The notes below the pieces were generated by a model. It saw only the letters and a program-made list of their open reading frames with translations, searched no databases and was not told the origin of the DNA. Positions 4,896-43,572 of a stretch of DNA of 64,000 nucleotides are shown one piece after another (within the stretch, counting starts at the first letter, position 1; each line of letters starts with the position of its first letter). Both the position numbers and the translations under genes were made by a program. The stretch comes from Nemertoderma westbladi (taxonomy: Eukaryota; Animalia; Xenacoelomorpha), in NCBI GenBank assembly GCA_032718475.1, contig JAUCBJ010009097.1, positions 1-64,000 of the forward strand, in the 5' to 3' direction.

Positions 4896-4979
4896 CCGCT
4901 CCCAGAAAATGGGATTTAATTCTATAAAATATAAAAAATCACAGTTTCTAAAATATAAAAATACTCTAAACAGTTAGTC

Positions 4980-12831: not shown

Positions 12832-13116
12832 GTTTGTTTGTACAGTTGAATGCCTACTGCTATGTTACAGTTAAAGCAAGTCTAGTAATTCAGTATCTAC
12901 TGTTAGCCTAGTAATTAATTACCGATACTGCTACTCAGTGTAGCGTGATATATATATAATATATTAGAATACCGGTATGCTTATAGTATATATAAGTATT
13001 ATTACAGACTAGGTTTGTCACAGAATACCGGTAGGTAATTTCAGCACAAATATATATAAATATATAATAGGCCTATCGTGAATACCGGTATGCAGCTTAC
13101 ACTTATAGTATATATA

Positions 13117-15403
13117 CTATAGTATATCTACACTTCGACCCTTCTCCAGTGATCACCGCCTTATTGTGGCCAAGGTAAGACTTAGTCTGCGTGCTAGCAG
13201 AACAACGAAATCTGCCTTGCCACGGCATGACTGGTCCTCTCTGTTGCAACAGCCAAGTGTGAGATCCAGCTTCACACTACAGCTGAGCAACAGGTATGAG
13301 GCTCTTGCCTCTGAGGCGGCAGATCACTGTGAGGGCTATACTGCCTTTACAGAAGCAGTTAAGTTAGCAGCTGCAGAAACAGTTCCTGTATACCCTCGAA
13401 ACAGGAAAAGGGCCCCCTGGACTGACAACAAAATTCAGAAGTGCCGAAATGACCTTCATAAGGCGCAGAAAGAGTCCCGACTCAAACAGACTACAGCGGC
13501 CAAGAATGCAGTTAAAGCTGCATCTAGGTCCCTGAACAGGCAGTACTCTGTTAATCTACAGGAGCTAATAAACCAACAGGTTGATGCCATCAATGATGCT
13601 GACGACAGCAGGCAATCATCCCAGGCATGGAAATCGATCAATCTGCTTACTGGGCGGAAAAGCCAACCAACCACCAAGGTTAAGGCTGAATCACCAGCCG
13701 ATCGCCTCAATGGTTGGAAAGCCCACTTTGAAAAGCTCCTCAATAATGACAGGGTATTGCCTGATAACTTTATAGAAGTAAAAGTGTCTGAGTCTGTACT
13801 CCCAGATATTCCCATTGGCGATATCTCCTTTGCAGAAGTGAAGGCTGCTGCAAAGAGCATTAAGACCAATCGTGCCAGTGGAGTAGATGGTGTTCCCCCT
13901 GAGGTCTTTAAAATACCTGAGTGTTTAAAGCTCATCTATCCCATCATAGTAGACATGTACCGTACAACAAGAGTCCCACAAGAAATGAAAACAAATAAGT
14001 TGGTGCCAGTTCCCAAGAAGGGCAACCTAACACTCTATGGTTCTTTTCGGGGAATCTCATTGATCTCGATTGCTGCAAAACTATACAATAGAATTCTATT
14101 AAATCGCATCAGGGACCCCATTGAGAGACTGCTACGTGGAAATCAGAATGGGTTCCGTAAAGGTCGTGGGACCATGGAGCCCATTTTGGCACTTAGAAGG
14201 ATAATTGAAGAGTTATCAAAAAAGGAAGACAGGCATCTGGCTGTTGTCTTTGTTGACTTCTTCAAGGCCTTTGATTCAGTCTCTCGCTCACGTATGTTCA
14301 GCATACTTTCATTATATGGGATTCCTGATGAAATTATTGCAGCAATCAGATCAGTATACGATGGTTCGACAACATTTGTGTCTACTGTTGATGGTGACAC
14401 AGAACCATTTGAAGTGTTATGGGGCGTCCTCCAAGGAGACACACTTGCACCATTCTTGTTCATTATTGTGGTTGACTATGTTCTACGCATGTCCTTAGAT
14501 CATCATAATGATGATGGGGTGATGATAACTCCACCTACTGGCTCCAGAAGTCGAGGAAATCCTGCCAAGTACCTAACTGATCTAGACTTTGCTGATGACT
14601 TAGGAGTACTCTCAGAATCATTAGAGGGAGCCCAGCGGCTCCTCAGCTCATTAGAACATGCTGCTTCTAGTGTTGGTCTTTTTATTAACTCCAGAAAGAC
14701 CAAAATTCTGACAGTTAACTTTGAAAGTCCTCAGCAAGTCTCTGATCGGATGAGCATAAGCTCAAAGGATGGTATGCTTGAGCATGTGGACGACTTCTGT
14801 TACCTGGGATCATGGATCCGGAAGTCAGGTGAGGACCTTCGAATACGTAAGGGAAAGGCATGGGCAGCCTTGAATAGGCTTTCCAGGATTTGGAAGTCAC
14901 CTAGAATTAATCGGAAACTTAAGGTCCGATTATTTAGAGCAGCAGTAGTTCCAGTACTCCTCTATGGGAGTCCATGCTGGGCTCTAACTGTTGAGGACAC
15001 CAAATCTCTGGATGGCACATTCACAAGAATGCTACGCCGGGTACATTGTGTCAAGTACAATGCACACATCTCCAACCAGACACTATATAACATTGGAGGT
15101 GTCTCATTGGTTCCCCCAAGCTTGACACTAGAACAAAATCGCCTCCGCTTTGCAGGACATTGCTTTCGCCGTGAGGACCAGCCAGTGCATAATCTTGTAC
15201 TTTGGCAGCCTCATGGAGTGAATAAGCATGGTGGACAGCCCATGACTTTCTTGAGACGCATCTTAAAGGACACTGGCCTTAAAGATGCGGATGATCTAGC
15301 AAATGTCATGGGTGATAGGGAGTTGTGGCGGCGCAATTTTGTTGACAAGCCGGCACAGCATTCTTAAAAATGCAGCTGCAATGCAGCATGCCGATCCTAG
15401 TAG
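13117..15403 (+). mobile_element. 5'-truncated RTE-clade LINE inserted in the 5' leader of element A
   Basis: 13-bp TSD tatagtatatata (13104-13116, 15404-15416), (TAG)n tail, starts at the final SDH motif of the AP endonuclease. Confidence 0.92.
13166..15367 (+). CDS. RTE LINE reverse transcriptase (N-terminally truncated ORF)
   Basis: QNGFRKGRGT, FVDFFKAFDSV, GVLQGDTLAPFLF, DLDFADDL, FCYLGS motifs; open for 733 aa. Confidence 0.92.
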   Translation: MAKVRLSLRASRTTKSALPRHDWSSLLQQPSVRSSFTLQLSNRYEALASEAADHCEGYTAFTEAVKLAAAETVPVYPRNRKRAPWTDNKIQKCRNDLHKAQKESRLKQTTAAKNAVKAASRSLNRQYSVNLQELINQQVDAINDADDSRQSSQAWKSINLLTGRKSQPTTKVKAESPADRLNGWKAHFEKLLNNDRVLPDNFIEVKVSESVLPDIPIGDISFAEVKAAAKSIKTNRASGVDGVPPEVFKIPECLKLIYPIIVDMYRTTRVPQEMKTNKLVPVPKKGNLTLYGSFRGISLISIAAKLYNRILLNRIRDPIERLLRGNQNGFRKGRGTMEPILALRRIIEELSKKEDRHLAVVFVDFFKAFDSVSRSRMFSILSLYGIPDEIIAAIRSVYDGSTTFVSTVDGDTEPFEVLWGVLQGDTLAPFLFIIVVDYVLRMSLDHHNDDGVMITPPTGSRSRGNPAKYLTDLDFADDLGVLSESLEGAQRLLSSLEHAASSVGLFINSRKTKILTVNFESPQQVSDRMSISSKDGMLEHVDDFCYLGSWIRKSGEDLRIRKGKAWAALNRLSRIWKSPRINRKLKVRLFRAAVVPVLLYGSPCWALTVEDTKSLDGTFTRMLRRVHCVKYNAHISNQTLYNIGGVSLVPPSLTLEQNRLRFAGHCFRREDQPVHNLVLWQPHGVNKHGGQPMTFLRRILKDTGLKDADDLANVMGDRELWRRNFVDKPAQHS

Positions 15404-16464
15404 TATAGTATATATAAGTATAATTATGAACTAGAATTAATTACAGAGTACCGGTATATTTTCAGCCTAAATTTATAGAAATAAATATAATAAGCTTATG
15501 GTAAATACCGGTATGTCAATTATTTTAGAATAATTGAATTTCTGAAATTTTAGGGGTTACTTGGTTACTTTGCTTACTTTATTACCGTTGTTTAAGCAGT
15601 GGTCCAACTGATTAAGACCTAATTGTTGTATGGCAGGCCTACTATTTATAAATCGTTTGAGTTGATTTATAATATATATATACCGGTTTAATGGGTTTTT
15701 GTCAATATTTGAAATAAATGTTATTATTTCTGGGGGGAGTCACTACACAGAAGCGGTGCGCTCTCAGTGAAGTGCTACTTGTTGGACACTAAAACAAATA
15801 ATTCTAATTTACCTAAGTTACTTAATACTACAAATTACGTACAATTCGGGGTGAGATTACAATCTCTAAATAAACACAAAAATTACAAGTACGAATTTTT
15901 TAGGGTAATTTTACAGGGAATCTACAAACCAGCCTAACAAAGGGTTAGAAAATCTGGTTATAACAACGGACAGGATATTACGGTATTTGAAAATAATAAA
16001 CCAGTAGTAAATATATTGCATTGTCCAGATAGGAAAAATACCACCGTCTGACGACTTATAGCCGTATCGCTATAAGTACTACGTTATGTATCACGGAGTG
16101 TCCCTACCTGGAAGTTAATTACCGCGGCCTACCAGAGCCAACGTGCCTATTAACCACTTTACAACACAAATATACTGCCTACACACTAATTACCTTCGGA
16201 AAGCACTGTACACTAAACCCTAAATTAGGTACAAGTACTTGTACAACAAATAATCAGTAGTTAAAATACTTGAACAGCTAAAAGAACCACGGTATCTGCC
16301 GGAGTGACCAAAGCACAAAATCTCTAGTCTTTACCTACGCCAAGCAGCCCTGATGTAGTACCGGGGTTAGTTTAACTATAACGGTATGTATAACAAGCAC
16401 AATTACTGTAGGAATAAACTTGGGGATATGAATGTTGCGAATAATCGCATAAACTCTGAATAAT

Positions 16465-17040
16465 AAATATTACGCTACTCGTACAGACTACTCAAACAAA
16501 ATGCAGACCAAATACTGACAGACTACTATCAAGCCTAAACAAACTAAGGTATATGCAGACTCCGAAATGGTTAGTTAGTATGCGTTCTAACCGAGTAGTA
16601 CGACTTATTCTTTCAAAGGGGGTTTACCTCACAGCACTGGAAGCCCCTACGTTCCCAACTGGCACTTTATCAGACCTACACTCTACACACACCGAAATCT
16701 CCTCAGACCTAATATCAGCTAGGCAAAATCCAGCCTACAAATTATCTAAGTGAGAAATATTACGCTACCCGTACAAACTACACAAACAAAATACAGACCA
16801 AACGCTGGCAGACTACTATCAAGCCTAAATACACTACAGTATATGCAGACTCCGAAATGGTTAGTTAGTATGCGTTCTAACCGAGTAGTACGACTTATTC
16901 TTTCGAGGGGGTTCACCTCACAGCACTGGCAGCCCCTACTTTCCTAACTAGTACTTTTTCGGACATACGCTCTACACACACTACAGTCTCTTCAGACTTA
17001 ACAACAGTCAGACAACAGTCCAGCCTACAAATTATCTATA
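16465..17040. repeat. 290-bp tandem duplication in the element A leader
   Basis: atgcagactccgaaatggttagttagtatgcg at 16553 and 16843; flanking sequence collinear. Confidence 0.85.
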
Positions 17041-17309
17041 CAATCTGAGCAGGCTTACACGCCTTCTGCTCAATATTAGCCTACAAATAAATAAAACTTG
17101 ACAGAAACAAGTAAAATCTCAATAAAAAACCAGGGCGGCCGTCCCTGATTAATTATTAAGGCCTACTGGTATATAATTATCAAAATCGAATAATACTGCT
17201 GTACTTGTACTGTTGTAAGTACCGGTCCGGATGATCAGGCAGTCAGGCCTACAGGTTACCGGTCGACCGGTACTTTCGACTTGATTGCTTACGCCGCAAT
17301 CTAGAAGCT

Positions 17310-17320
17310 ATAACTGTTAC
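17310..17320 (-). promoter_or_regulatory. Non-tRNA primer-binding-site position of element A (GTAACAGTTAT on -)
   Basis: Abuts the 5' LTR, has no TGG, and is an exact 11-nt complement of LTR positions 18038-18048. Confidence 0.6.
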
Positions 17321-18476
17321 TGTTCGCGCTTTTAAGACCTTTGGCAGTTTAACCCGCCAAATCTATATGTCTTCTACGTTATAAATCAACTTTAGCCTAT
17401 GACAAGTATTTGACACAAATAAATCCAACATTAGCCGAAGCCAGTCTATGCGCGACCATTCACCCGCTGGATATACCCGGGAGACTGGATTCGGATGCTT
17501 TAATTTGATTGCAGTGCAGGCCTACCGTACTATTCGATTGATCGTTAATATAATTCCTGACAAATATCATTCACTTTCGGGAAATATTAGCAGTTCCTTT
17601 AGGACGTGGCGCTCTATCTATATACACAGAGCTATGGCTTACACTAAACACAACGGAATGGATTATAAGTTACACATAAAGGCGCATTCTTTAGGAGATG
17701 CTTTGTTACGCGGACAAGCACATACAGACTATTGCACACCGCTGCACACTGAATTGCCGATAGTCACTGATTTTAATCATATATAAAGAGAATAGCAACC
17801 GACATTTGTAGGGCCTATAAAATAGCATTCAATTCACTACAAACCACGATAATATAAGTAGCAATTGTTATATGTAACCGGTCTCTCTAACCTTAGTGTA
17901 TCAAGAAGATCGGAGTTTCTGATCGTTTATCGTTATTCTCCAAATAACAATATGTAAACAACTGATACAATTAATAACAAACAGTAAATAACAGTAAATA
18001 ATGTGCAATACGTGCCGTACCGTACCGTACCGTACCGGTAACAGTTATGTGTTCTTATAATTAAAGCCGTTCTAATGTTGGAATAAAACAGAATAATTCC
18101 ATAGCCGATGTTCATGGCATCAGGAAAACCAACACACTGAACCCTGTGAGCTGTTGCAGGTAGCTTTCAACACAAAGAGGAAAAGCTCTCATTGGCAGAG
18201 TTCCAGTTTCTATAAGTTCCATGAATGTCTAAATGCCAAACCTCCCTAGCCTTCGCAGCCCATAGCCAACACAAGGCTAAATCGCTCTGATTGATCGATC
18301 ATTGTTCTGATTGGTTAATCGAACGGAACAAAGAGGCTACACAAGCACAGCAAATCAGCCAACCAGAGGGCGGATTGTGCCACTAGAAGCAACAGTTTAG
18401 AGGATTTGAGCGAATGGGGGAAAACTGGATTATTACGAATGGAAAAGGCCAGTTATATCCCCCAAAAGCTTTTACA
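17321..18476 (-). repeat. 5' LTR of element A (1156 bp)
   Basis: Near-identical to 3741-4895; followed by TSD AAAGG. Confidence 0.95.
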
Positions 18477-20832: not shown

Positions 20833-21100
20833 CGACCTCCGCTTTGCAGGACATTGCTTTCGCCGTGAAAACCAGCCAGTGCATAATCTTGTGCTTTGAC
20901 AGCCTCATGGAGTGAATAAGCATGGTGGTCAGCCCATGACTTTCTTGCGACGCAATTTAAAGGACACTGGACTTGAAGATGCGGATGATCTAGCAAATGT
21001 CGTGGGTGATAGGGAGTTGTGGTGGCGCAATTTTGTCGACAAGCCGGAACAGCATTCTTAAAAATGCAGCTGCAATGCAGCATGCCGATCCTAGTAGTAG
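20833..21100 (+). mobile_element. Short 5'-truncated RTE copy
   Basis: Matches 15140-15403 with small indels, (TAG)3 tail, 11-bp TSD tcgcaggggat (20822-20832, 21101-21111). Confidence 0.9.
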
Positions 21101-21346
21101 TCGCAGGGGATTGATAATCAACACGGGTTTTGGAACTACCGCTACCATGAAGGTATGTAAGATTTTTAGTAAAAATTTCGATGCAAAAAGATGACATTCT
21201 TTAAAAACACGCTCTCTAATTTTACCAATTATGGAAGGGCAGTAGAGGTCGTAAGGTAAGATTTTAATGGTTATCATTGGAAGAGGTAATAGTTTAACAG
21301 TAAACACGTTAATAGTATACAAGTATACACATGTATTTAATATATA

Positions 21347-22956
21347 TGTTCGCGGTATTTCAACTTTCCATAACGCGAGTTGAATATTTTTGTATTTATT
21401 TAAAATTGATTATTCCGATATTACTACTGGGTGCGGGACCATGGGTTTTGGGCACATTCAATAAACTGGGGGCGATTTATGGGCGAACTTTGGGGCAACT
21501 TACAGGGTACGGGAATAATTTCATAGTTATAAGGGCCAGGGGGGGATGGAAAATGCAAGCAGTATTCAGGTTAGCCTGAGTACTATTAGGCCCTGGCCAA
21601 CTTCCTGCTGCCTGTAGGGGTGGATTTGGTAATGCGCCAGGCCTAAAGGACAAGGACTGCCCTTAGCGGTCCCTGGCCAACAGCAGCTATTACGAGACTG
21701 AAAAGAACTCGGACCGCTGACTGCTTGTGTCAGGGATTTGCGACGGGAAACGACGGCCCCTTAGTAGCCAAGCCGTTCTGGTTCTCGATGATCGAACCCT
21801 TCGGGGTTTGTGAGGGGTGGAGCGGACACGCGAACGGGTGGCCAACTAACGACTGCCCCCTGAGCTAAGCCGTACTGGTTCTCGATGACCGATCCCTTCG
21901 GGGTTCGCGAGGGGTGGGACGGACATGCGAAAGGGCTGGCCACAGGACGGGTTTGACGAGGACTGCCCTTAGCGGTCTCTGGTCAACGGCAGCTACTACG
22001 AGACTGAAAAGAACTCGGAACGCTGACTGCTTGTACCGGGATCTGCGACGGGAACCGACGACAGACCCCTTAGCCAAGCCGTACTGGTTCTCGATGATCG
22101 TTCCCTTCGGGGTTCGTGAGGGGTGGAACGGACACGCGATGGGGTCGAAAGACAAAGGACTAGACTCTACTGGCCTACCGACTGTTCGGAGCAGTTTCTC
22201 GGCTGCCGAAGCGACTACGAGCCTGAAAGGGACTCGGAAAGCCTAGGTGGTTGGGTTTCTGCGATGAACCGACGGACCCCTAGCCAAGCCGTTCTGGTTC
22301 TCGATGATCGTTCCCTTCGGGGTTCGTGAGGGGTGGAACGGACACGCGAACGGGTCCACCGACACAACAGACTCCTAGCTAAGCCGTATTGGTTCTCGAT
22401 GACCGATCCCTTCGGGGTTCGAGAGGGGCGGTACGGATACGCGACAGAGTCTACCGACTGGACCGACCCTTAGCCAAGCCGTGCTGGTTCTCGATGATCG
22501 TTCCCTTCGGGGTTCGTGAGGGGTGGAACGGACACGCGACAGGGTCGACCGACACCGACACTACGGCACTAAGACTAGGACCAAGGGAAAATCTGGGGAA
22601 CATTAGGTAGGCTAAAATCTGAGCGAACAGTGGGTAATTAAATAATATACCGTAGGGATTTATATTATCGTGTATAATTATTGTGAATATTTGGTGTATA
22701 TTGATTTGGGGAAGCCCAAAATTATTCTTAATCAGGGTTCAACAGGGTTCAATATTGTTGACCAGGTTCAACAGAGTTCAGTTACATTAAAGAGTATATC
22801 CAACTAATGCAGCTTTTTCTCAACCGCAACCCTGCATCTCAGAAATCATTCCTTCTCCAAAATCAATATCCGGTGACTGGCCGGGGCTCAGTGGTCTGTA
22901 AAGTCACGTCTCCAGCATCGGCGTTTTTCCCCCCTGGTGTTGGGATAACGGCAACA
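21347..22956 (+). repeat. 5' LTR of element B (1610 bp)
   Basis: About 7 substitutions plus one G-run indel versus the 3' LTR, counted by eye. Confidence 0.97.
21666..22547 (+). ncRNA. Array of two putative structured RNA modules in U3 (order B-A-A-B-A-B-A-A-A); duplicated at about 34149-35030
   Basis: Module A (6x): ccgtNNt-ggttctc-GAT-GA-N-cgNNccc-TTCG-gggttcg-N-GA-gggg-N-ggNacgg. Module B (3x): ta-cgag-Nct-GAAA-RgR-a-ctcg-gaa. Compensatory changes occur between copies. Confidence 0.7.
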
Positions 22957-22958
22957 AA

Positions 22959-22971
22959 ATTAAGAATAATT
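22959..22971 (+). promoter_or_regulatory. Non-tRNA primer-binding-site position of element B (ATTAAGAATAATT)
   Basis: 2 nt after the LTR end, has no TGG, and is an exact 13-nt complement of LTR positions 22720-22732. Confidence 0.65.
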
Positions 22972-23206
22972 AATGCGGTTAATTTTGACAGGGTGTCAAA
23001 ATTAAGAATAATTACGGTCAACTTCAACTGGTGGAAGTTGAGAATCCTTCAATACTCTTCAAAACTCTCTACGTGCTTGCCAGCACCCACTACGAGGAAA
23101 CTCTGGTATTTGAGTTGAGACAAAGTCGTGGTTTAATTAATCAACAAACTCGATCTAACCAACTCGTAGTCGGCAGATCACATATTTGGAGAGTTGTTAA
23201 CAGGGA

Positions 23207-23398
23207 ATGGAAGTATCGATCACACCCATTGATATAATCCAAGTTGAGCCAGGAATCTGGCACGTCGAAGTTGAAGTACAAGGAACGAACGTCGGACGAT
23301 TCAGGATTACCGTTCGGGTGGTCCAAGCTGAGTACAATACCTACGAGGAACTGTTTTATGACATCGCGTATCTAGCTATCGACGAGGCGTTACAATGA
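23207..23398 (+). CDS. Small upstream ORF (63 aa) overlapping the ORF1 start via ATGA
   Basis: ATG start, protein-like alternating hydrophobic pattern, stop TGA overlaps the ATG at 23395. Confidence 0.4.
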   Translation: MEVSITPIDIIQVEPGIWHVEVEVQGTNVGRFRITVRVVQAEYNTYEELFYDIAYLAIDEALQ

Positions 23399-24456
23399 CG
23401 ACAAATAACGTATCCGATACCGACGAGATGGATCACCACACAGACTCGGAAGCCGACGAGGTACCAAACGTCAAGAACATGACCCGTCGGCTAGGGGCTC
23501 TCAAAGGCGGAGTAACCCGAGCGTATCAACGGATGGAGAAACAACTCAAGGGAGTCAAAACCCCCCTCAATGAGGTACAAACTCAGCTTCAAAGTATCCG
23601 AAATATCCTACAGCAGTACGAAAGAATGATACAGGCGTACCAAGAGCTCGTTCCCTCCACTGATCAGGAAAACTACCCCAAGTTGGAAGAACACGTTGTA
23701 CATCTAGATGGGTTCCGCAAACAACACCGGAGGACCCTCAGCCTTGTGAGAGGCTATGAAGAACAGTATTACAAGAGGGCTGAAAGAACAGACGCGGAAT
23801 CAGTACGATCCTCCAGCATCAGGACAGCAGTACATCGAAAGAGAACGGGGTCCGCTAGAAATCAGCACTCCAGCGCTAGGAGCGAGATATCCGGATCAGC
23901 GCGCAGTTCTCAAGGGGCGCCGCCACTCCGAGACCAACTACGAGAACGGAAGGCATTAGCCCTCAAAGCTCGGATGGAAGATGAGTATATTCAACTGCAA
24001 GCCGAGCAAGATGTATTAGCCGCCGAAACACAAAAGCGAGAGGCCGAACAAGCGGCCGAACGGCAGGCCGAACAACGCGAACAGGAGGCCGAACAACATA
24101 GACGAGAGGCCGAACGGCAGGCCGAACAACGCGAACAGGAGGCCGAACAACATAGACGAGAGGACGAACGGCAGGCCGAACAACGTAAACGAGAGGACGA
24201 ACGACAGGCCGAACAACGCAAACAGGAGGCCGAACAACGCGGACGAGAGGCCGAACGAGAGATCGAACAACGTAGACGAGAGGCCGAACAACATAGACGA
24301 GAGGACGAGCGAGTGTACCCAAGTACGAGCCTGAAAGGGACTCGGAACGGGACGCCACTCCCCGATCTAACAACCCATTTACATCCACACCACAAACTCG
24401 TAGCCGCGTCATTATTAAAACTCCACCTATTATTGATCCATCAAGTATGGGAGTGA
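23395..24456 (+). CDS. Element B ORF1: N-terminal part of BEL Gag with coiled-coil (EAEQHRREAERQAEQREQ) repeats
   Basis: BEL-like N-terminus (RRLGALKGGVTR), Ser/Arg linker and charged repeats. The -1 frame leading into ORF2 is open from 24297. Confidence 0.8.
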   Translation: MTTNNVSDTDEMDHHTDSEADEVPNVKNMTRRLGALKGGVTRAYQRMEKQLKGVKTPLNEVQTQLQSIRNILQQYERMIQAYQELVPSTDQENYPKLEEHVVHLDGFRKQHRRTLSLVRGYEEQYYKRAERTDAESVRSSSIRTAVHRKRTGSARNQHSSARSEISGSARSSQGAPPLRDQLRERKALALKARMEDEYIQLQAEQDVLAAETQKREAEQAAERQAEQREQEAEQHRREAERQAEQREQEAEQHRREDERQAEQRKREDERQAEQRKQEAEQRGREAEREIEQRRREAEQHRREDERVYPSTSLKGTRNGTPLPDLTTHLHPHHKLVAASLLKLHLLLIHQVWE

Positions 24457-27400
24457 GTGCCAATAACTATAACCCTCCGAGTCACTCTAGTTCAGACGAC
24501 GTCAGCATCATCCGGGCGTTGGAGAACCGCCTTGCCATGCCTAAGATGGAGATTCGCACCTTCGAAGGAGATCCCATCGATTACCTCAGATTCAAGAAAC
24601 GGTTCTTTGCGCAGATCGGATCAACGGACATAGCCGACGCACAGAAATTGGTATATTTATCGCAATACCTGGGTGACAAACCACGCAGAATTATTGCATG
24701 TTTTGAAGGAGGTTCTCATGAGGCATACTATGACGCATGGAAAACTCTAGATAAAAGATACGGAAATACCGGAACTATAATTAATAAAACTCTAGAGAGA
24801 CTGATACAGGACGCGGGATCACTAGGGGACCCACAGAACATACAGGAATTCTCCGACTCTATGAAGGATGCCTACTATACTCTGAAACCCTTAAATAAGG
24901 AGGACCAGGTGAACAACATTCTAAACCTCCGACAGATCGCCCGGAAGTTCCCCGGATGGCTACAAAGTAAGTGGGCTTATAAATGTGTAGATCTCCGGCG
25001 CAGACATCCAGATCGAGATCCTAGCTTCCTTGAAATGTCGGCATTCCTGGACGATATCTCCGAAGCCATGAATGACTCGATGTTTTCAAAACAGAGTCTC
25101 GCAAAGTTGGACGGAATAGAAAGCAACTCCAGGAGTAAGATAACCCCTCCGAAACCGAGATTCCGCCCCCCACCGGTGAGTACGATGGCCATCACCATGG
25201 CCGAGGATTCCGACGACGAAGACTACGAGGAACCGACATCCGCCGAGGAATGGGCATGTTATCTCGCGAGTTGGGCACCCGAAAGGGAAGGCATCACAAA
25301 TTCCCTGCTCTGTCTCTTCTGTGGGGAGAAACATAAAGTGGAATTCTGCAGAAAGTTTCAGTTCGCCGAACTCGTCCCACGCTTCGAGGCGATAATGAAA
25401 CACCGAGGATGCTTCCGGTGTCTTGGAACAGGTCACTATGTTCGGGAGTGCGACCAAAGATCATGCTGTGCTGTCTGTAACGACCAACGCCATCACACGC
25501 TCCTCCACATCCCCGCGAACTTCGATTTTACTACCCTCCCCTTTCGGATCGAAGCCAGGCAAAGAGGAGAAACAAACCACGTCTTCAAAGGAACCCGGAC
25601 AACCCAACGGAGAGAAACCAACCCGTTTAAAATCTTCACCGATACACCACAAGTAACAAATATTTCGGCCACGATTAATCTTATAAATCGCCGCTACATG
25701 GTCTTCGCAAAGGTAATCCCAGTAAGGATCCAAGGAGTCGGCAAATCTTTGACGACACTCGCGTTCCTCGATAACGGGTCCGACGGAACCATCATCAACC
25801 GGGATTTCCTTGAGCAACTCGGCCTAGAATATGAACCTTGTAAACGGCCCATACAAACCATCACCGATAACAGAGAGGTAGAGTCCGGGGAGGTGCAACT
25901 CCAGATGGAAGGAGTGATGAAGGGCTACGAAACGGCTAAGTTAACCATCAAGAATGCCTTGGTACACACAGACCTCCGGGTGCGGTTCCGACAATCAGCC
26001 GAGTACGCCCCCCTCATACAATTGGACCGAGACGATGTAGACCTGAGGTGTCCGCAGTTGGACGTAAACCGCATCACCCTACTGATCGGACTTGATACAC
26101 CGGAACTACACATCCCCACCGGAGATATCGCCCGATCTATAAACCAGGATGACGGATTTTATGCTGAACGAACAATAATGGGATGGACACTCTGCGGCAT
26201 TAAGGAGGAAACTACAGACACCTATACCTACCTTCCCAAATGCCAGATTAAAGAGAATGCAACCTCCGTGGGTTATTGCTCAGCTTCGGATTTTGACGAG
26301 GATTTGTTTCTGGAAACCGAGAAAACCCAACGAGAGATGACGAAATATTTTAATTTGGAAACCCAGGAGTTCGCAGAAAAGGACGAAAACCCATCCGAAG
26401 AGGACCAATATTGTATGGACGTTCTCGACCAGGCCACGTTTAAAGACGGACACTGGTGTTCACCTATGTTATGGAAGGACCCAAACAAACCAATGGCAAA
26501 CAACGCCAGCATGGCACTTAGGCGACTTAAAGGGATTCTACGCCGGCTGAATGACCAACCCGAGATAAAGGAGAAATATAATACCGTAATCCAAGGATAT
26601 CTCGATGATAGATTAGCAGAAATGGTACCACGGAATGAACTGCAAGGTGGTAAAAGAACATATTACCTCCCAACCCACTATGTAGTAGAAGCCCGCAAAG
26701 GTGGGAAAATCCGAGTGGTAAATGATGCTGCCGCTATGTACCAGGGTGAATCCCTAAACAGTCAACTTTACACGGGACCCAACATATATAGCACACTCAT
26801 TGGCGTATTGATCAGGTTCAGGGAAAACCGGGTAGCATTCACCTGTGACATCAAGGCCATGTTTCATCAAGTTCGTACGTTACCAAGAGACTCGGACTGT
26901 CTACGTATCCTATGGACGGATAAAACGCTTACTCAACAGGAGATTAGCCAACTCACGATAAAGGACGTAGACATAATGCGTATGGTCGTCAGGATCTTCG
27001 GCGCTAAGGACTCGCCGGTAGCATGCAGTGACATGCTAAAGAGGACAGCAACTATGTGCGAAAACGAGTTCCCTCCAACCGTCATAGAAACAATTCGACG
27101 ATGCTTCTACGTGGACGACGGATGCGCTGGCGCGGATAATGTGGATGAGGCATATCGGCTAGCAATGGGGATGGTAGAATGTCTAAAGAAAGGAGGGTTT
27201 CCGCTCGTGAAGTTCAGATCCCACGACAAAACACTTATGGAAAAGTTTCCGGAGGACATCCGGCTGGAAAATAACAAAATGTATTCGGAGGATGTGGAAC
27301 ATCGTGTACTCGGGATTGAATGGGACATAGAATCTGATGAATTCATCTTCAAATATAAACCCCTACCCAAGCCTATGACAAAAAGGGGATGTTTGTCGAT

Positions 27401-29813
27401 AAAAAGCGCCATCTTCGACCCACTAAATTTCATATCTCCAGTAACCTTGGCCGGAATGAACCTGATTAAGGAAATGTGGATAGAAGGACTGGGATGGGAC
27501 GAAGAGCTCCCCCCATACCTCAGCGTCAAATGGAGAAAATGGACGGAGCAGCTCGAACACCTACATCTTATGCGGATACCTAGACCGTTCTTCCTCGATA
27601 AACTGCCCACCGATATCTTCCAGCTCCACACCTTTTCGGATGCTTCGAATACCGGAATCGGCGTAGTCACCTTCTTACGGAGACTAAGTAACGATGGAAA
27701 CGGCGATACAAGCTTCTTATTCTCCAAAGCAAAGACAGTATCCGGGGAATTCGTAGCAACGATTCCGAGACTCGAGCTACAAGCTGCAGTTTGGGCAGTA
27801 AGACAGAATCGCATGGTCATGCGGAACCTACGGATCCCCATAGAATCTCAACACTTCTGGGTAGATTCGAGTATAGTTCTCTATTATCTCCACTCTCCAT
27901 CACGGCGTCACACCACGTTTGTTGCAAACCGAGCCACGGAGATTAAACAGTGTACCGGCCGAGAACAGTGGCATCACGTGAACGGGAAGGAAAACCCAGC
28001 GGACTTATCAAGCCGAGGCGCCACCCCAAAACAACTCGGTAAAAGTAAACTCTGGCTTACAGGCCCGGAATTCCTACGGCAGCCACAATTAACATGGAGT
28101 ACCCGATTCGACCCCGAGCTCGATAGCGGAAAATACTCCGAGGATGATAAAGAGATCCGTAAAATCCATCGAAGCAACGCGGTGGAAATTTATAGTTGTC
28201 TGACTGAGCCTGCAAAGGACTCAGGCAGGCACTATAACGTCGCGACGATCACTCAACTAGCGGCGTCTTTACATCGGTTGATCGAGCGAACTTCATCCAT
28301 GAGACGGCTCGTCCATCACGTTATAACCCTTCGCAACTTCCTACGGTGGAAAAACAACAAACCGATAGTTCAACGGAATATACAAGAACTCATTATCGCG
28401 GAGAAGTGTATTGTTAGATATGTCCAGAAAGAAAGTTTCCCCGATGAATGGGAACAACTTAGTGCGGGCAAAACGTTGAAACCGGACAGCCCAGTCTACC
28501 AACTGAGACCAATGATGGGAGAGGACGGACTGATCCGACTGAATACCCGGATGGCAAACGCCCCGGTCGAATATGAGGTTAAATACCCGGCGCTTCTGCC
28601 CGGAACGTCGACACTAGCTAAGCTATTAATTCTACAATGTCACGAGGACAACCACCACGCAGGACAGAATTGGATTATAGCTAATATAAGACAAAGATAT
28701 TGGATCACCCACATCCAGCCATTGATCCGGAAAGTGTTGAAACGTTGCTTCACCTGCAGACGTTACCTAGCGCCACCAATCACCCAAAAGATGGCCGACT
28801 TACCAGCCACCCGTCTACAAGCGGATTCCCCACCATTCTACGTCACCGGAGTGGACTGTTTCGGACCATTCACGGTTATTGAACGACGATCCAACATCAA
28901 ATGCTGGGGAGCCATCTTCACCTGCCTAAGGTCTAGGGCAATTTACCTAGATATCGTGGTAAATCTGACACAACACGCATTCATCAACGCTCTGCGTCGG
29001 TTCGTGGCGAACAACGGGACATGCCGCCACATGTATTCCGATAATGGTACAAACTTTGTGGGAGGAGAAAGAGAACTTAGAGAGGCGATCGAGGGATGGT
29101 TTACCGATAACACCGCATCCCAAGTCTGGAAGGAACACCAGATACAGTGGCACTTCCAGACCCCCTTAGCACCCCATACGAGCGGGGTATGGGAGAAACT
29201 GATCGACCTAGTGAAACGATCCATGCGCGTCGCTCTAGGCGATACCCGGGTAACCCATGACACCCTCCGCACAACATTCTGCGAGATCACGGCTACCCTG
29301 AACAACCGACCCATTGTTCCTATCCGCGACGACCCCACAGACCTGGAGCCCCTCACTCCTAACCACTTACTGGGGAGACCCAAAACCCACGTCCTCCCGG
29401 AAACCATGTTCCCGGATCCCAACGAGATCGCGAAACATACAAACTGGAAAAAGGCCCAAGCGTTGGCAGCGCATTGGTGGAGAATTTGGGCCCAGGAGTA
29501 CCTCATAACCCTCCGGACCAGGAGGAAATGGAACAACACCTACCGGAACGTCGCAGTTGGCGACATGGTATTAGTTAAAGAAGATCTCAAAGACCGCGTT
29601 CACTGGCCTGTGGCGCGGGTCGTGACCATACACCCAAGCAAAGACGGACTTGCGAGGACTGTGACGATACGAACGAAATCGGGCCACTACCAACGCCCCA
29701 TCCAGAAGCTGTGCCTTCTTGAAGGCAATGACAGTGGTGATTCTACAAGAGGTGATAAGTTCCCTACTACGGATCCTGCTGCAGACATTGGTGACAATTA
29801 TAAATGCGTTTAA
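24447..29813 (+). CDS. BEL/Pao Gag-Pol polyprotein (capsid-like DUF1759, Zn knuckles, protease, RT, RNase H, integrase)
   Basis: MPKMEIRTFEGDP; three Cys/His knuckles; FLDNGSDGT; YVDD; FSDAS/TIPRLEL/NPAD; HHCC; GVDCFGP-SDNGTNF-GVWEKL; C-terminal WPVARV…RPIQKL. Uninterrupted 1788 aa. Confidence 0.97.
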   Translation: MGVSANNYNPPSHSSSDDVSIIRALENRLAMPKMEIRTFEGDPIDYLRFKKRFFAQIGSTDIADAQKLVYLSQYLGDKPRRIIACFEGGSHEAYYDAWKTLDKRYGNTGTIINKTLERLIQDAGSLGDPQNIQEFSDSMKDAYYTLKPLNKEDQVNNILNLRQIARKFPGWLQSKWAYKCVDLRRRHPDRDPSFLEMSAFLDDISEAMNDSMFSKQSLAKLDGIESNSRSKITPPKPRFRPPPVSTMAITMAEDSDDEDYEEPTSAEEWACYLASWAPEREGITNSLLCLFCGEKHKVEFCRKFQFAELVPRFEAIMKHRGCFRCLGTGHYVRECDQRSCCAVCNDQRHHTLLHIPANFDFTTLPFRIEARQRGETNHVFKGTRTTQRRETNPFKIFTDTPQVTNISATINLINRRYMVFAKVIPVRIQGVGKSLTTLAFLDNGSDGTIINRDFLEQLGLEYEPCKRPIQTITDNREVESGEVQLQMEGVMKGYETAKLTIKNALVHTDLRVRFRQSAEYAPLIQLDRDDVDLRCPQLDVNRITLLIGLDTPELHIPTGDIARSINQDDGFYAERTIMGWTLCGIKEETTDTYTYLPKCQIKENATSVGYCSASDFDEDLFLETEKTQREMTKYFNLETQEFAEKDENPSEEDQYCMDVLDQATFKDGHWCSPMLWKDPNKPMANNASMALRRLKGILRRLNDQPEIKEKYNTVIQGYLDDRLAEMVPRNELQGGKRTYYLPTHYVVEARKGGKIRVVNDAAAMYQGESLNSQLYTGPNIYSTLIGVLIRFRENRVAFTCDIKAMFHQVRTLPRDSDCLRILWTDKTLTQQEISQLTIKDVDIMRMVVRIFGAKDSPVACSDMLKRTATMCENEFPPTVIETIRRCFYVDDGCAGADNVDEAYRLAMGMVECLKKGGFPLVKFRSHDKTLMEKFPEDIRLENNKMYSEDVEHRVLGIEWDIESDEFIFKYKPLPKPMTKRGCLSIKSAIFDPLNFISPVTLAGMNLIKEMWIEGLGWDEELPPYLSVKWRKWTEQLEHLHLMRIPRPFFLDKLPTDIFQLHTFSDASNTGIGVVTFLRRLSNDGNGDTSFLFSKAKTVSGEFVATIPRLELQAAVWAVRQNRMVMRNLRIPIESQHFWVDSSIVLYYLHSPSRRHTTFVANRATEIKQCTGREQWHHVNGKENPADLSSRGATPKQLGKSKLWLTGPEFLRQPQLTWSTRFDPELDSGKYSEDDKEIRKIHRSNAVEIYSCLTEPAKDSGRHYNVATITQLAASLHRLIERTSSMRRLVHHVITLRNFLRWKNNKPIVQRNIQELIIAEKCIVRYVQKESFPDEWEQLSAGKTLKPDSPVYQLRPMMGEDGLIRLNTRMANAPVEYEVKYPALLPGTSTLAKLLILQCHEDNHHAGQNWIIANIRQRYWITHIQPLIRKVLKRCFTCRRYLAPPITQKMADLPATRLQADSPPFYVTGVDCFGPFTVIERRSNIKCWGAIFTCLRSRAIYLDIVVNLTQHAFINALRRFVANNGTCRHMYSDNGTNFVGGERELREAIEGWFTDNTASQVWKEHQIQWHFQTPLAPHTSGVWEKLIDLVKRSMRVALGDTRVTHDTLRTTFCEITATLNNRPIVPIRDDPTDLEPLTPNHLLGRPKTHVLPETMFPDPNEIAKHTNWKKAQALAAHWWRIWAQEYLITLRTRRKWNNTYRNVAVGDMVLVKEDLKDRVHWPVARVVTIHPSKDGLARTVTIRTKSGHYQRPIQKLCLLEGNDSGDSTRGDKFPTTDPAADIGDNYKCV

Positions 29814-30089
29814 ACCCTTCTCATCATGTTGACAAACTCTTTTAAAACTGTGATTTATCGACAACGAGTTATGGACCCCCCTTAAACCAACTGTAACCAC
29901 GCAATGGTATTTGTGTTTCCTCGTGTGTTATGTGGAGTCCAGCATCACCCTGCAGATGTTTCGACTGACGCAGGGTCGTTTATGTATTGTTTACCCTGAT
30001 TTTGGTCATCGGGACCAATGATATTGGATTATTGGAAATGGAAAAGATTTGAAGTGGAATTCATTGTATTCATTGCAGTATGTTATGTT

Positions 30090-30510
30090 GTCCGTTGCGT
30101 GCGCAGTTCGGGGCGTAGGCGGTGTAACAAGTCCAGCTGTAGATCCCAGATTGCCGCGCAACACCCCCTCTATCCCGTTATCCTGGTGGGTCCATGGTGC
30201 ATCCACATGACTTCGACGATAGAGGGTTTTATGTTTCTCAGTCGCGTTATTCTGGTGGGACCGTTACGTGGATTTTGGGGCGTAGGCGGTGTAACGAGTC
30301 CAGCTGTAGATCCCAGAATGTTGCGTAACCCCATCCCACATGACTTCGTCGACTGAGCTTTATGTTGTTGGGAGTGTTATTCTGGTGGGTCCCTGGTGCA
30401 TCCACGTGACTTCACTCCTAGCGTCTTCATTGTCCGTTACGTGCGCAGTTTGGGGCGTAGGCGGTGTAACGAGTCCAGCTGTAGATCCCAGATTGCCGCG
30501 TAACACCCCT
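30090..30510 (+). repeat. Three copies of a ~58-nt hairpin-forming repeat in the pol-ORF3 spacer
   Basis: ggggcgtaggcggtgtaacRagtccagctgtagatcccaga…cccc at 30110-30168, 30277-30332 and 30452-30509, interleaved with a gttatYctggtggg unit. Confidence 0.85.
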
Positions 30511-31064
30511 TCCACGACAAAGATTAACCAAAGAAAATGATTGAATATAGTTGGAAACGATGAAAAGGATCAGACAACTCTACTATAAACCTGAATGATG
30601 ACGCGTATACTGATGAAAATGTAATGATGCGCACCCTGGTGCTGCGCTTATAACCAATGATGATAGCCGGGGGGCTATAAACCCAATGATGATGTGGAAA
30701 TAAATAAATGTGAAATAAATGGTGGAAATAAATGTGTTGAAATATATGTGGAAATAAATGAAATGAGATGAAATAATAATGAAATGAAAAAAGACAAAAA
30801 AAAAGGTATAAGAAGGTCTAAAGAAAAGAATTAGAAAAAAGAAAAGGACAAAAAAGTCATAAAAAACTGGTTGGATATTAATGTATAGCTATAGTAACTG
30901 TAAATGCTGAATGTATTAGCAATAAGATGATAGATGTCTATATAGCAATATTATTTAATAAACTGAATTAAATAAAAAACTGAATTATTCTGCTATCGCT
31001 ATAGTTTCAGACTTTCTGGACTTATAATTAACTGATCTAATTTGTAACGGATATAATCGTAAAT

Positions 31065-33665
31065 ATGGACCCAAATCGCCAAATTATCGGCGAATTACGT
31101 AACACGATAGATCTACTGGAATATTCGCAACCCAGATCCCCTGACTTCGATACAAATTGGAGCACCCTGCTAAATGAGAACGTGCGAGTCATTAAATTCA
31201 CCGGGCGAGAGGGACCGGATTCTAAGAATCTACGAGCCCTCCGGTTAGCCGATGCTAGTACGAGACTGAAAAGAACTCGGAACGCAAAGGCAACCGGAGG
31301 GGACGGTTCGTCTTTTTGGGAAACGTTCCGGCAGAGCGTCTACAGATCCCGATGTTTGATCTACGACAACGAGGGAAACGCGACGCCCACCTCGAAAGCG
31401 ATTACGTTGGCGAGATGTCAAAGTTTCGTCGACGACAAGAGTACGTACCTCGCCCACTGGGGAAACCTGTCGGAGTGTACGGCGACGCTTCGAGAGGAAC
31501 GCGTATCGATTATCCAGAACCGAGACGACTACCAGGAAAAGTACGGGGCGAAAGAATACGGTCGATCCTTAGTCGTCGTCCTCGGAACCCTGGACGGTTT
31601 GGTACTGGTGTGCCGAATATTCCCGACACCCAGCCAGGAAGTGCAGGCAGCCGGAGCCATCTGGTTGCTGCCTCCGGAAATCCAAAAGATCCTCTTCGAC
31701 TTCGACATCATTAAAATCGGGTCGGATATCAAGGCGGACGTCCGGAACGACTACGCGAACGCTCCTGCAGGAAGAAACCGACGAGACGACCTCAACGCCC
31801 TTAGCCATTGCATCGACACTCAAACACTACTAGCCTGGTTACGATTCGCCGAGTTCATGCGAGGATTCCAAGAGGTGATACCGACGAAATCCGGGATCGG
31901 CTACCTCGCTGTGCTAAACGGCGGTATCGACTTCAAACCCCAGAAATTCCGGGACTATAATAAAATATACGGTGGATACCCGGGATTAGAAATAAAGAGC
32001 GAGCGAGAGGGTCGATGGAAGGACGTTGATCGGAAGTGGACGATACACCAAAGGTGGGAGAATCCCGATCGATGGAACTACGTTTACGTCGTTATGGAGT
32101 GCTACACCGTCGCTAAGTTTATCTGTAAAACTCTCGATAACCTTATTACGGCGGTCCCCCTTTCCTTCGTCGACTACGACTGGAACGTGGTCATACACCA
32201 CGCGTTCAAAGCGGTCGAGAACATCGCACCGGGAGAGACTAAAACGCTCGCCGTTATCGATTCCTGGGACGAGAGCGGACCTTACGACATCCCTACGATT
32301 ACCGAACTTCTCGGTGCGGAGGAGCCTCTGATCTCTTCGGAAGGAGAAGAGATATGGCTAAACGAGGGTGTTCTACTCTCCACCCCGAAGCGACAACTCG
32401 AGCCTGAGGCCGCGTATGGACCGGCCGCCAAGCGGGTTGCCTCGGCCGAACCGATGAAGAGAGCAGGCGTTTACACCCCACGCGGCTCCGGTAGCCCTGC
32501 GAGGGAGGTAGCCACTACAGCTGCATTGAGCGACTTCGGCGACATATGCCAACGGTTATCCCCGTATCCTTTCCCGGGTGGCGAAGATTGGTCGTCGGAG
32601 ATTCCGAGTACCAGCCACCAATGGACCCGCGCAGCGATACTGATCGAGGAGGGCCCCAGCGATGCGCCGACCCCCGACGATCTCCTCGGTATCCCTCCGT
32701 CTAAAACCCCGGCACCTCTTCGCCGACCAGCGGTGGCTACTACACCCGCCGTTCCTCAGGACCCTATGCGACTAACCCGTTGGTACGCCGAGCAAACTGA
32801 ATGGATCCACCGCCAGAAACGGTCATCCGAGTTGAGACCAGCGGGACACAAAGAAGGTTATCGGAGCGAGAACCTACTACGCAACAGCCTAGCATTCCGC
32901 GGGCTACCGACCACCGCGAATATTCCGAAGAGCGACCGACGACTCGAGTATCACGTCGGCGTCCCGATTCCGATATTTCCTGGTCGAGAGATGCAGTTGG
33001 AGGTATGCGGCGACTGTGGTTCGGAGCAGTGCCCACGCGGCAGAAGGAATCGGGTTACCGATTCATGCCTCCAGCTCCTCGGGATACTCTATTGCCCATA
33101 CTGCGCGACATCGGGCCACGACGTTTCCGTCTGTCCGATCCTTTATAACCTCTGCACCACGTGCGGTTTCCGTGGACATTCCTCTAGCCCCTGCTGCTAT
33201 ATCAAATGTCCAATCAAGGACGTAACCGCTATGGGAAATATGGTCATGTTTGAAACATACGCAAACAGCCACTTAATGACCAAGGTTCGGAGAAACGCTC
33301 GGAATATTGCGCAGGAGATGGCGTGCGGGTATTTCTCCTACCCGGAACGCCTCCACACGTCGGCCACGCTACCTTTCCATTACGTGGATCTGCTACTGAG
33401 CGCCGGATTATTCAGTCCATTTGAAGTCATTAGACGATTATACTCGTATAAAGAGGAGTTCGGTGACGGAGAATGGTTCCTAGAGGCACGCAAATCTGAG
33501 TTAGAAAGACGAACCGACATGATCCCTATGCCATCGAAAGGAAGAGCCACCAGGAGACAAGCCGAAGCGTTACTCACAATGGATGTTGACGCTCCTCTAC
33601 CAGCTATAGCGATCGATGAGAGTCGACGGGCGAAGAGACGAAAGGCGTATCAGAGAAAGAAATAG
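31065..33665 (+). CDS. Element B ORF3: putative DEDDy (RNase D/WRN-like) 3'-5' exonuclease plus C-terminal CCHC zinc knuckles
   Basis: LIYDNEG (ExoI), LPPEIQKILFDFDIIKIGSDIKAD (ExoII), IDTQTL, RWENPDRWNYVYVVME (ExoIII-like). CPYCATSGHDVSVC and CTTCGFRGHSSSPC fit C-X2-C-X4-H-X4-C. 866 aa open, inside the LTRs. Confidence 0.8.
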   Translation: MDPNRQIIGELRNTIDLLEYSQPRSPDFDTNWSTLLNENVRVIKFTGREGPDSKNLRALRLADASTRLKRTRNAKATGGDGSSFWETFRQSVYRSRCLIYDNEGNATPTSKAITLARCQSFVDDKSTYLAHWGNLSECTATLREERVSIIQNRDDYQEKYGAKEYGRSLVVVLGTLDGLVLVCRIFPTPSQEVQAAGAIWLLPPEIQKILFDFDIIKIGSDIKADVRNDYANAPAGRNRRDDLNALSHCIDTQTLLAWLRFAEFMRGFQEVIPTKSGIGYLAVLNGGIDFKPQKFRDYNKIYGGYPGLEIKSEREGRWKDVDRKWTIHQRWENPDRWNYVYVVMECYTVAKFICKTLDNLITAVPLSFVDYDWNVVIHHAFKAVENIAPGETKTLAVIDSWDESGPYDIPTITELLGAEEPLISSEGEEIWLNEGVLLSTPKRQLEPEAAYGPAAKRVASAEPMKRAGVYTPRGSGSPAREVATTAALSDFGDICQRLSPYPFPGGEDWSSEIPSTSHQWTRAAILIEEGPSDAPTPDDLLGIPPSKTPAPLRRPAVATTPAVPQDPMRLTRWYAEQTEWIHRQKRSSELRPAGHKEGYRSENLLRNSLAFRGLPTTANIPKSDRRLEYHVGVPIPIFPGREMQLEVCGDCGSEQCPRGRRNRVTDSCLQLLGILYCPYCATSGHDVSVCPILYNLCTTCGFRGHSSSPCCYIKCPIKDVTAMGNMVMFETYANSHLMTKVRRNARNIAQEMACGYFSYPERLHTSATLPFHYVDLLLSAGLFSPFEVIRRLYSYKEEFGDGEWFLEARKSELERRTDMIPMPSKGRATRRQAEALLTMDVDAPLPAIAIDESRRAKRRKAYQRKK

Positions 33666-33830
33666 TGGATCGGGATATTCCAGGAACATTTATCGAACAT
33701 TTATTTTTATACAAACTCTAGGCCAAATTAATTAAAAACTATGCAATATTAAATTTGGGTTTTTTATATTGGGAATGACCTACGCAAACTCAATCGACCG
33801 ACAGACTTCACGAAGGTCATTGGGGGGGAC

Positions 33831-35439
33831 TGTTCGCGGTATTTCAACTTTCCATAACGCGAGTTGAATATTTTTGTATTTATTTAAAATTGATTATTCC
33901 GATATTACTACTGGGTGCGGGACCATGGGTTTTGGGCACATTCAATAAACTGGGGGCGATTTATGGGCGAACTTTGGGGCAACTTACAGGGTACGGGAAT
34001 AATTTCATAGTTATAAGGGCCAGGGGGGATGGAAAATGCAAGCAGTATTCAGGTTAGCCTGAGTACTATTAGGCCCTGGCCAACTTCCTGCTGCCTGTAG
34101 GGGTGGATTTGGTAATGCGCCAGGCCTAAAGGACAAGGACTGCCCTTAGCGGTCCCTGGCCAACAGCAGTTATTACGAGACTGAAAAGAACTCGGAACGC
34201 TGACTGCTTGTGTCAGGGATTTGCGACGGGAAACGACGGCCCCTTAGTAGCCAAGCCGTTCTGGTTCTCGATGATCGAACCCTTCGGGGTTCGTGAGGGG
34301 TGGAGCGGACACGCGAACGGGTGGCCAACTAACGACTGCCCCCTGAGCTAAGCCGTACTGGTTCTCGATGACCGATCCCTTCGGGGTTCGCGAGGGGTGG
34401 GACGGACATGCGAAAGGGCTGGCCACAGGACGGGTTTGACGAGGACTGCCCTTAGCGGTCTCTGGTCAACGGCAGCTACTACGAGACTGAAAAGAACTCG
34501 GAACGCTGACTGCTTGTACCGGGATCTGCGACGGGAACCGACGACAGACCCCTTAGCCAAGCCGTACTGGTTCTCGATGATTGTTCCCTTCGGGGTTCGT
34601 GAGGGGTGGAACGGACACGCGATGGGGTCGAAAGACAAAGGACTAGACTCTACTGCCCTACCGACTGTTCGGAGCAGTTTCTCGGCTGCCGAAGCGACTA
34701 CGAGCCTGAAAGGGACTCGGAAAGCCTAGGTGGTTGGGTTTCTGCGATGAACCGACGGACCCCTAGCCAAGCCGTTCTGGTTCTCGATGATCGTTCCCTT
34801 CGGGGTTCATGAGGGGTGGAACGGACACGCGAACGGGTCCACCGACACAACAGACTCCTAGCTAAGCCGTATTGGTTCTCGATGACCGATCCCTTCGGGG
34901 TTCGAGAGGGGCGGTACGGATACGCGACAGAGTCTACCGACTGGACCGACCCTTAGCCAAGCCATGCTGGTTCTCGATGATCGTTCCCTTCGGGGTTCGT
35001 GAGGGGTGGAACGGACACGCGACAGGGTCGACCGACACCGACACTACGGCACTAAGACTAGGACCAAGGGAAAATCTGGGGAACATTAGGTAGGCTAAAA
35101 TCTGAGCGAACAGTGGGTAATTAAATAATATACCGTAGGGATTTATATTATCGTGTATAATTATTGTGAATATTTGGTGTATATTGATTTGGGGAAGCCC
35201 AAAATTATTCTTAATCAGGGTTCAACAGGGTTCAATATTGTTGACCAGGTTCAACAGAGTTCAGTTACATTAAAGAGTATATCCAACTAATGCAGCTTTT
35301 TCTCAACCGCAACCCTGCATCTCAGAAATCATTCCTTCTCCAAAATCAATATCCGGTGACTGGCCGGGGCTCAGTGGTCTGTAAAGTCACGTCTCCAGCA
35401 TCGGCGTTTTTCCCCCCTGGTGTTGGGATAACGGCAACA
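33831..35439 (+). repeat. 3' LTR of element B (1609 bp)
   Basis: Preceded by the PPT, followed by TSD ATATA. Confidence 0.97.
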
Positions 35440-43557: not shown

Positions 43558-43572
43558 AATATTTATCGCAAG

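Follow-up and report, generated by a model that had tools for sequence, protein, structure and literature searches.

Own-LTR complementarity at the primer-site position suggests self-primed reverse transcription in a BEL/Pao element of Nemertoderma westbladi

[quoted passage not shown] In Tf1 the primer site pairs with the first 11 bases, and the RNase H cleavage point lies between bases 11 and 12 (excerpt of PMC7175516). BEL/Pao elements, classified by the ICTV as Belpaoviridae, are described as primed by host tRNA, at an 18-nt stretch that pairs with the tRNA-Arg or tRNA-Gly 3′ end, their LTRs measuring 0.2-1.2 kb and their genomes 4.2-10 kb (PMC8742986), and the insect member Achilles is given a tRNA-Tyr site in the excerpted text of PMC4580426. 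A term search found no mention of a PBS or tRNA in the Sinbad paper (PMC554778), a BEL/Pao survey (PMC3118150) or a mollusc survey (PMC6238403), and the excerpted portions of PMC8220671, PMC3286476, PMC12451622 and PMC9094657 say nothing on priming. None of the literature matches listed describes self-priming in BEL/Pao, and subscription papers, GyDB, Repbase and supplements may hold a remark; this known mechanism is likely to be undescribed in the superfamily in which our sequences point to it. The C. elegans element Cer7 has reportedly been proposed to encode its own tRNA-like primer, which is a different mechanism.

Elements A and B lie in the 64,000-nucleotide stretch of N. westbladi contig JAUCBJ010009097.1 analysed here (the window), and their features are collected in Table 1. 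Element B is flanked by a 5-bp target-site duplication (TSD), the length typical of BEL/Pao, and it has TG...CA LTRs and a polypurine tract (PPT) before the 3′ LTR; comparison of the window with itself gives eight differences between its 5′ and 3′ LTRs (99.5% alike). Its Gag-Pol frame runs in the order DUF1759, CCHC knuckle, protease, RT (YVDD), Peptidase_A17, integrase and DUF5641, with Pfam matches to DUF1759, Asp_protease_2, RVT_1 (E 0.045), Peptidase_A17 (6e-38), Integrase_H2C2, rve and DUF5641, that is, Pao-type Gag-Pol domains in the order PR-RT-RH-IN. The closest protein relatives, from corals, fish, molluscs and echinoderms, are 36-43% identical and have the same domain families. The domain order of Gag, protease, RT, RNase H and integrase, with LTRs, a PPT and an optional third ORF, is shared with the Belpaoviridae/Semotivirus elements BEL, Pao, Roo, Ninja, Tas, Cer13, Suzu and Sinbad (PMC8742986). 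By these features element B is a young BEL/Pao element, filed there by its proteins, and its primer site departs from the family description: unlike the ICTV Belpaoviridae it has no 18-nt tRNA-Arg or tRNA-Gly site and no TGG after the LTR, its LTRs measure 1.6 kb and it is 14.1 kb long. A Pfam domain search found no chromodomain match in element B, and its BEL/Pao domains indicate that it is not a member of the Tf1/sushi group.

Table 1. Positions of the features of elements A and B within the window
Feature	Position	Strand	Remark
Element B, BEL/Pao LTR retrotransposon	21347..35439	+	14,093 bp
Target-site duplication ATATA, both flanks of element B	21342-21346, 35440-35444		
Element B 5′ LTR	21347..22956	+	1610 bp, TG...CA, ends GGCAACA
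Six copies of a ~90-nt unit	21761..22556	+	element B 5′ LTR, presumed U3
Three TATA-like sites	22661..22704	+	22661, 22673, 22697; putative role
Exact complement AATTATTCTTAAT	22720..22732	+	5′ LTR; candidate self-primer, 3′ end at 22732
29-nt stretch absent from one X4 contig	22735..22763	+	summed contig depth falls in X1, X3
ATTAAA, candidate poly(A) signal	22786..22791	+	53 nt past the 13-mer; putative role
2-nt spacer AA	22957..22958	+	mirrors AC at 33829-33830 on the PPT side
Primer-site position, copy 1: ATTAAGAATAATT	22959..22971	+	no TGG
12-bp hairpin	22979..23005	+	22979-22990 pairs with 22994-23005
Primer site, second perfect copy	23001..23013	+	within 18-nt duplication 22997-23014
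Gag-like N-terminal reading frame, charged repeat	23362..24456	+	frame differs from that of the next ORF in this copy
Gag-Pol frame, 1838 aa	24297..29813	+	element B
Extra ORF after pol, 874 aa	31041..33665	+	element B
Polypurine tract + 2-nt spacer	33812..33830	+	PPT is a run of 7 G, then AC (33829-33830)
Element B 3′ LTR	33831..35439	+	ends GGCAACA
Element A 5′ LTR	17321-18476	-	other LTR 3741-4895, TSD AAAGG
Element A primer-site position, 11 nt	17310..17320	-	adjoins 5′ LTR, no TGG
Element A, exact complement of its own site	18038..18048	-	LTR positions 429-439

The 13 nt at the primer-site position are exactly complementary to a stretch of the element's own LTR, present also in the 3′ LTR (at 35203). 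The initial annotation had placed the LTR end at 22956, the site at 22959-22971 and the complement at 22720-22732, and all of these coordinates hold; we also confirm from the sequence its reading of AA and then ATTAAGAATAATT with no TGG, the mirroring of AA by the AC between PPT and 3′ LTR, and the ATTAAA at 22786, downstream of the complement. The TATA-like box it had reported is present, as TATATTGA starting at 22697 (23 nt upstream of the 13-mer), and is one of three such sites, the others lying 47 and 59 nt upstream. A complement of at least 13 nt at offsets 0-4 arose once when the whole LTR was dinucleotide-shuffled 5000 times, and likewise once in 5000 shuffles of its AT-rich last 400 nt. 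The 13-bp duplex is perfect but weak (-9.8 kcal/mol), 12 of its 13 letters being A or U. We consider it probable that element B primes reverse transcription with this 13-mer of its own RNA instead of a tRNA; the missing TGG, the perfect duplex, the 2-nt offset matching that on the PPT side and the shuffle result all favour this.

Element B resembles Tf1 and Tf2 of Schizosaccharomyces pombe and the Tf1/sushi group in that a site complementary to the element's own LTR stands in place of a tRNA site, with 11-13 nt of own-LTR RNA pairing there. It differs from these Ty3/gypsy chromoviruses in having BEL/Pao domains by Pfam and a duplicated site; moreover, the primer cut has been demonstrated in Tf1, whereas in element B we infer it. 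The prediction comes from complementarity alone, as it does for TAR elements (Houba, Osr-1) and Tcn1 (excerpt of PMC6317226); those are plant elements of other superfamilies, and the excerpted text on them mentions neither an intron-built primer nor a doubled site.

Element A (3741-18476, minus strand) is a BEL/Pao derivative that encodes Gag and protease and has LTRs 99.1% alike; no RT was found in it with the polyproteins of four relatives as queries. Its LTR has no BLAST match to that of element B, and it holds an 11-nt version of the same arrangement, which again favours self-priming. The complement lies 717 nt from the LTR end, and an 11-nt self-complement was reached in 15 of 5000 shuffles. 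We also note a LINE-like RT frame inside element A (13109-15367, plus strand), a second A-like internal region, 86% identical, that runs past the window edge (56941-64000, minus strand), and two partial A-like LTRs (824-1565 and 36780-37466, 73-84% alike, no TSD found) that share the U5 side of element A and differ at the pairing stretch.

More distant relatives were sought in a metagenome contig scan, which gave 79 loci; the 15 with a repeat boundary resembling an LTR end were taken, and three of these were dropped (L015 because it duplicates L017, L050 and L058 because neither has a clean end). The remaining 12, several of which are kin rather than independent, are 35-39% identical to element B over RT-RNase H. 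Under strict splice filters, eight of the 12 have a perfect own-LTR complement of at least 10 nt. The filters were relaxed after this first result to any GT donor with a YAG acceptor, and the end of L007 was moved to the shared repeat end; 11 of the 12 then have such a complement, of 10-15 nt at offsets 0-4. Two of the 11 are contiguous, and nine (L003, L007, L012, L017, L021, L028, L030, L059 and L068) pair only across a GT-AG junction inside the LTR, with GTAAGT as donor seven times and GTACGT and GTTCGT in the others. Splicing in these nine is predicted purely from consensus signals, and the need for a splice junction to form the pairing stretch sets these many relatives apart from Tf1. The twelfth relative, L046, has, by eye, a 12-nt pairing with one G-U. 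A splice-built primer was rejected for elements B and A, whose best junction matches are 6 and 7 nt.

With elements B and A included, an exact own-LTR match is present in 13 of 14 elements. Cross-element controls under the relaxed rules reach at least 10 nt in 12 of 182 pairings of a site with another element's LTR, and 10 of these 12 involve the LTR of L007, L021, L028 or L046, four elements with similar sites. The 11 self-complementary relatives, set against these controls, favour self-priming, and since the letters differ between families, it is the pairing that is kept. TGG is absent after the LTR in 11 of the 12 relatives; the exception, L012, carries one at +2, and its site is likewise self-complementary. 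Across the 13 tabulated elements the duplex always begins within 0-4 nt of the LTR end, and downstream of the pairing stretch 11 of them have an AWTAAA, so that R would reach beyond the primer, a requirement of strand transfer; this too argues for self-priming. A TATA-like box was found in four of 11 relatives, 31, 133, 165 and 184 nt upstream of the pairing stretch, and since three of these are far upstream (133-184 nt) the RNA may begin some way ahead of the primer. Together with the junction-spanning pairing of the nine relatives, this means that a distant RNA start would speak against only the exact Tf1 geometry, and that self-priming does not depend on the narrower proposal of a Tf1-like transcript beginning at 22720.

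On these comparisons, self-pairing at the primer-site position is part of a clade-wide pattern. The earlier proposal that element B self-primes is strengthened to the extent that own-LTR pairing recurs in element A and 11 of 12 relatives, self-priming itself being what we infer from DNA. Counting against it, element B stands on a long branch in the tree, among relatives that are not close kin, and L012 has its TGG. When 13 additional loci lacking a known LTR end were scanned under looser rules, 10 gave a match at a plausible end (none in L001, L011 and L035; two are apparent copies of families already counted), but the controls also match (25 true against 6 and 12 control) and the result is not counted as support. 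Contiguous pairing at offset 4, with sites that are almost identical, is shared by three relatives (L014, L049 and L054); L049 falls among fish proteins in the tree, and fish BEL/Pao elements may be worth checking.

The leader of element B carries two features that the initial annotation had missed. The 18-mer CAAAATTAAGAATAATTA is present twice, at 22955-22972 and 22997-23014, giving a second perfect copy of the primer site, and a 12-bp hairpin overlaps this copy; the 5′ arm of the hairpin could pair, in addition, with 22955-22963, where the LTR ends and copy 1 begins. When RNAs that end before the hairpin are folded (starts 22710-22724), the copy-1 duplex has a pair probability of 0.99-1.00, whereas in RNAs from 22710-22720 to 23060 copy 1 falls to 0.02-0.28 against 0.55-0.85 for copy 2; in RNAs starting at 22690-22700 the copy-1 pairing is weak for the most part. 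With the second site and the hairpin, the leader is predicted to have two nearly equal folds, 0.1-1.5 kcal/mol apart in ensemble energy, which may make it a switch; alternatively, the duplicate could be a leftover that does no harm. That folding with both sites often prefers copy 2, and that the duplex is weak, counts against self-priming. In LTR elements the right end of the DNA copy is set by the point where priming starts, which must therefore adjoin the LTR end. Because the 3′ LTR and four LTR-flank contigs in X4, one of three DNA runs, all end at CA before copy 1, that copy rather than copy 2 is the likely priming site of element B, and these ends also favour self-priming itself. The one partner found for copy 1 is the 13-mer of the element's own LTR, which precedes the ATTAAA.

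Contigs of the three DNA runs (X1, X3 and X4) were aligned to 22690-23030, divergent contigs being clipped in the alignment, and variants at 1% or more were listed; none is phased. The element B family has many LTR copies, judging from high summed contig depth. Both 13-mers are free of listed substitutions, while 19 of 195 flanking positions vary, a weak difference (Fisher p = 0.14) that lends weak support to self-priming. In clipped contig ends of all three runs there is a T>C at 22729, and the change that exactly matches it when copy 2 is the paired site, A>G at 23004, reaches about 20% in X1 and X3; this match favours self-priming. However, the variants are unphased and a T>C at 22980 (6% and 12%) equally compensates the 23004 change inside the local hairpin, which weakens the argument. 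The changes at 22729, 22980 and 23004 lie in one register and would fit a single subfamily. The same A>G occurs in first-copy context in one contig each of X1 and X3, which adds to the match, but with an apparent 3-nt gap that would cut the duplex to 9 bp; this gap, and a further LTR variant in X4 with no partner seen, disfavour self-priming. Some contigs, at low depth, join the LTR end to a single site, and the 29-nt stretch in Table 1 may be a minority feature of the family.

If element B self-primes, the process could run as follows. RNA derived from the 5′ LTR would fold so that 22720-22732 pairs with 22959-22971, and a nuclease, by analogy with Tf1 the element's own RNase H, would cut after 22732. 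From the end so formed, reverse transcriptase would copy the AA spacer, U5 and R; transfer to the 3′ copy of R would follow, and integrase would trim the 2-nt spacer. The primer would be contiguous in elements B and A, and most relatives would splice out an LTR intron to build theirs. Of the two predicted folds of the leader, only the copy-1 pairing would yield the LTR end seen. Copying of the primer during plus-strand synthesis would keep site and LTR matched.

Several other readings of the complementarity have to be weighed. Given 12 A or T letters among 13 and a local duplication in the region, one might suspect chance pairing in an AT-rich sequence, or a primer site damaged in this one instance, but the shuffle tests, the 99.5% likeness of the LTRs, the lack of listed site substitutions in three runs and the recurrence of the pattern in element A and 11 of 12 relatives leave this reading with next to no probability; the shuffles and the recurrence already largely refute it. 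The pairing could instead be a conserved structural switch, in packaging, dimerisation, translation or strand transfer, with another primer that bears no TGG mark. Two sites with a competing hairpin, folds so close in energy, the matching variant pair within the hairpin (22980/23004) and a cut at 22732 that is only postulated would suit such a switch, yet it is unlikely, given that the duplex starts within 0-4 nt of the LTR end, where priming must start, in all 13 elements, and that element B, element A and 11 of 12 relatives have no alternative primer site at the boundary.

The primer might also be derived from the element and act in trans, a short or processed RNA being supplied by a different transcript or by the second packaged genome, with no Tf1-like cut. 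DNA cannot separate cis from trans, a short capped RNA, a small RNA or a splicing product would serve, the family has many LTR copies, and the CAG after the 13-mer resembles, by eye, a 3′ splice site. We find this decidedly improbable, as the last 400 nt of the B LTR contain no GTRAG, GTAAGT or GTACGT donor, the cis duplex forms readily in RNAs ending before the hairpin, and the extra ORF, in which the first acidic exonuclease motif is missing, is not a promising trimming enzyme. A tRNA cut at nt 39 would carry the marks of the anticodon arm, namely Y32, U33, R37 and a 31:39 pair. The complement of the B site fits these marks, with anticodon CUU, which disfavours self-priming and would suit a host tRNA fragment, for example the 5′ half of tRNA-Lys(CUU), as primer, the LTR match being secondary; half-molecule tRNA primers are described in Ty1/copia lineages (excerpt of PMC6317226). 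Such a fragment is nevertheless very improbable: all four marks fit in just two of 13 elements, B included, with differing anticodons, and it leaves unexplained both the own-LTR match in 13 of 14 elements, nine of them across a splice junction, and the LTR variant that mirrors a site variant.

Priming by the element's own 13-mer, if true, would mean that a third LTR superfamily, after Ty3/gypsy and Ty1/copia, self-primes too, across very divergent animal elements. It would have a bearing on the number of gains and losses of tRNA priming, make these elements independent of host control exerted via tRNA, and account for the way filters based on tRNA sites may miss or down-rank them. The candidate primer is predicted exactly, as 13 nt ending at 22732. 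More tentatively, and with considerable doubt, a large animal branch of BEL/Pao might have dropped tRNA priming in favour of splice-built and contiguous self-primers, the doubled site and hairpin of element B forming a two-state switch between a primed leader and one held back.

The extra ORF of element B shows weak likeness to 3′-5′ exonuclease-type proteins and has two distant relatives (E 8e-6 and 5e-4), one of which matches PF01612 faintly (E 0.2). It has Cys/His knuckles near its C-terminus and lacks D-x-E, the first acidic motif, which both relatives possess; it is possibly an inactive DEDDy-like protein, and the idea that it trims the primer was set aside because this motif is missing. 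The bdelloid elements Juno and Vesta likewise have a DEDDy-like ORF3 after pol (excerpt of PMC5408684), a weak link, as they are not BEL/Pao and the element B ORF is without D-x-E. The 1.2-kb spacer between pol and the extra ORF holds three ~55-nt repeats and a long A-rich tract (30092-30515).

The ~90-nt units of the presumed U3 contain a UUCG-capped stem and occur as six copies per LTR (at 34244-35039 in the 3′ LTR), and two copies of a ~80-nt unit lie in the presumed U3 as well. A search of 21000-36000 against Rfam gave only three chance-level matches, none for the ~90-nt unit, and a ribozyme reading of these repeats is not supported, with little covariation and changes on both sides in two of 24 pairs. 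ARAGORN found no tRNA within the window, which also contains a LINE-type element with endonuclease and RT domains (41344-44424, minus strand). Element B is inserted into an AT-rich spot of a repeat (21119-21347), an empty copy of which lies at 1-232.
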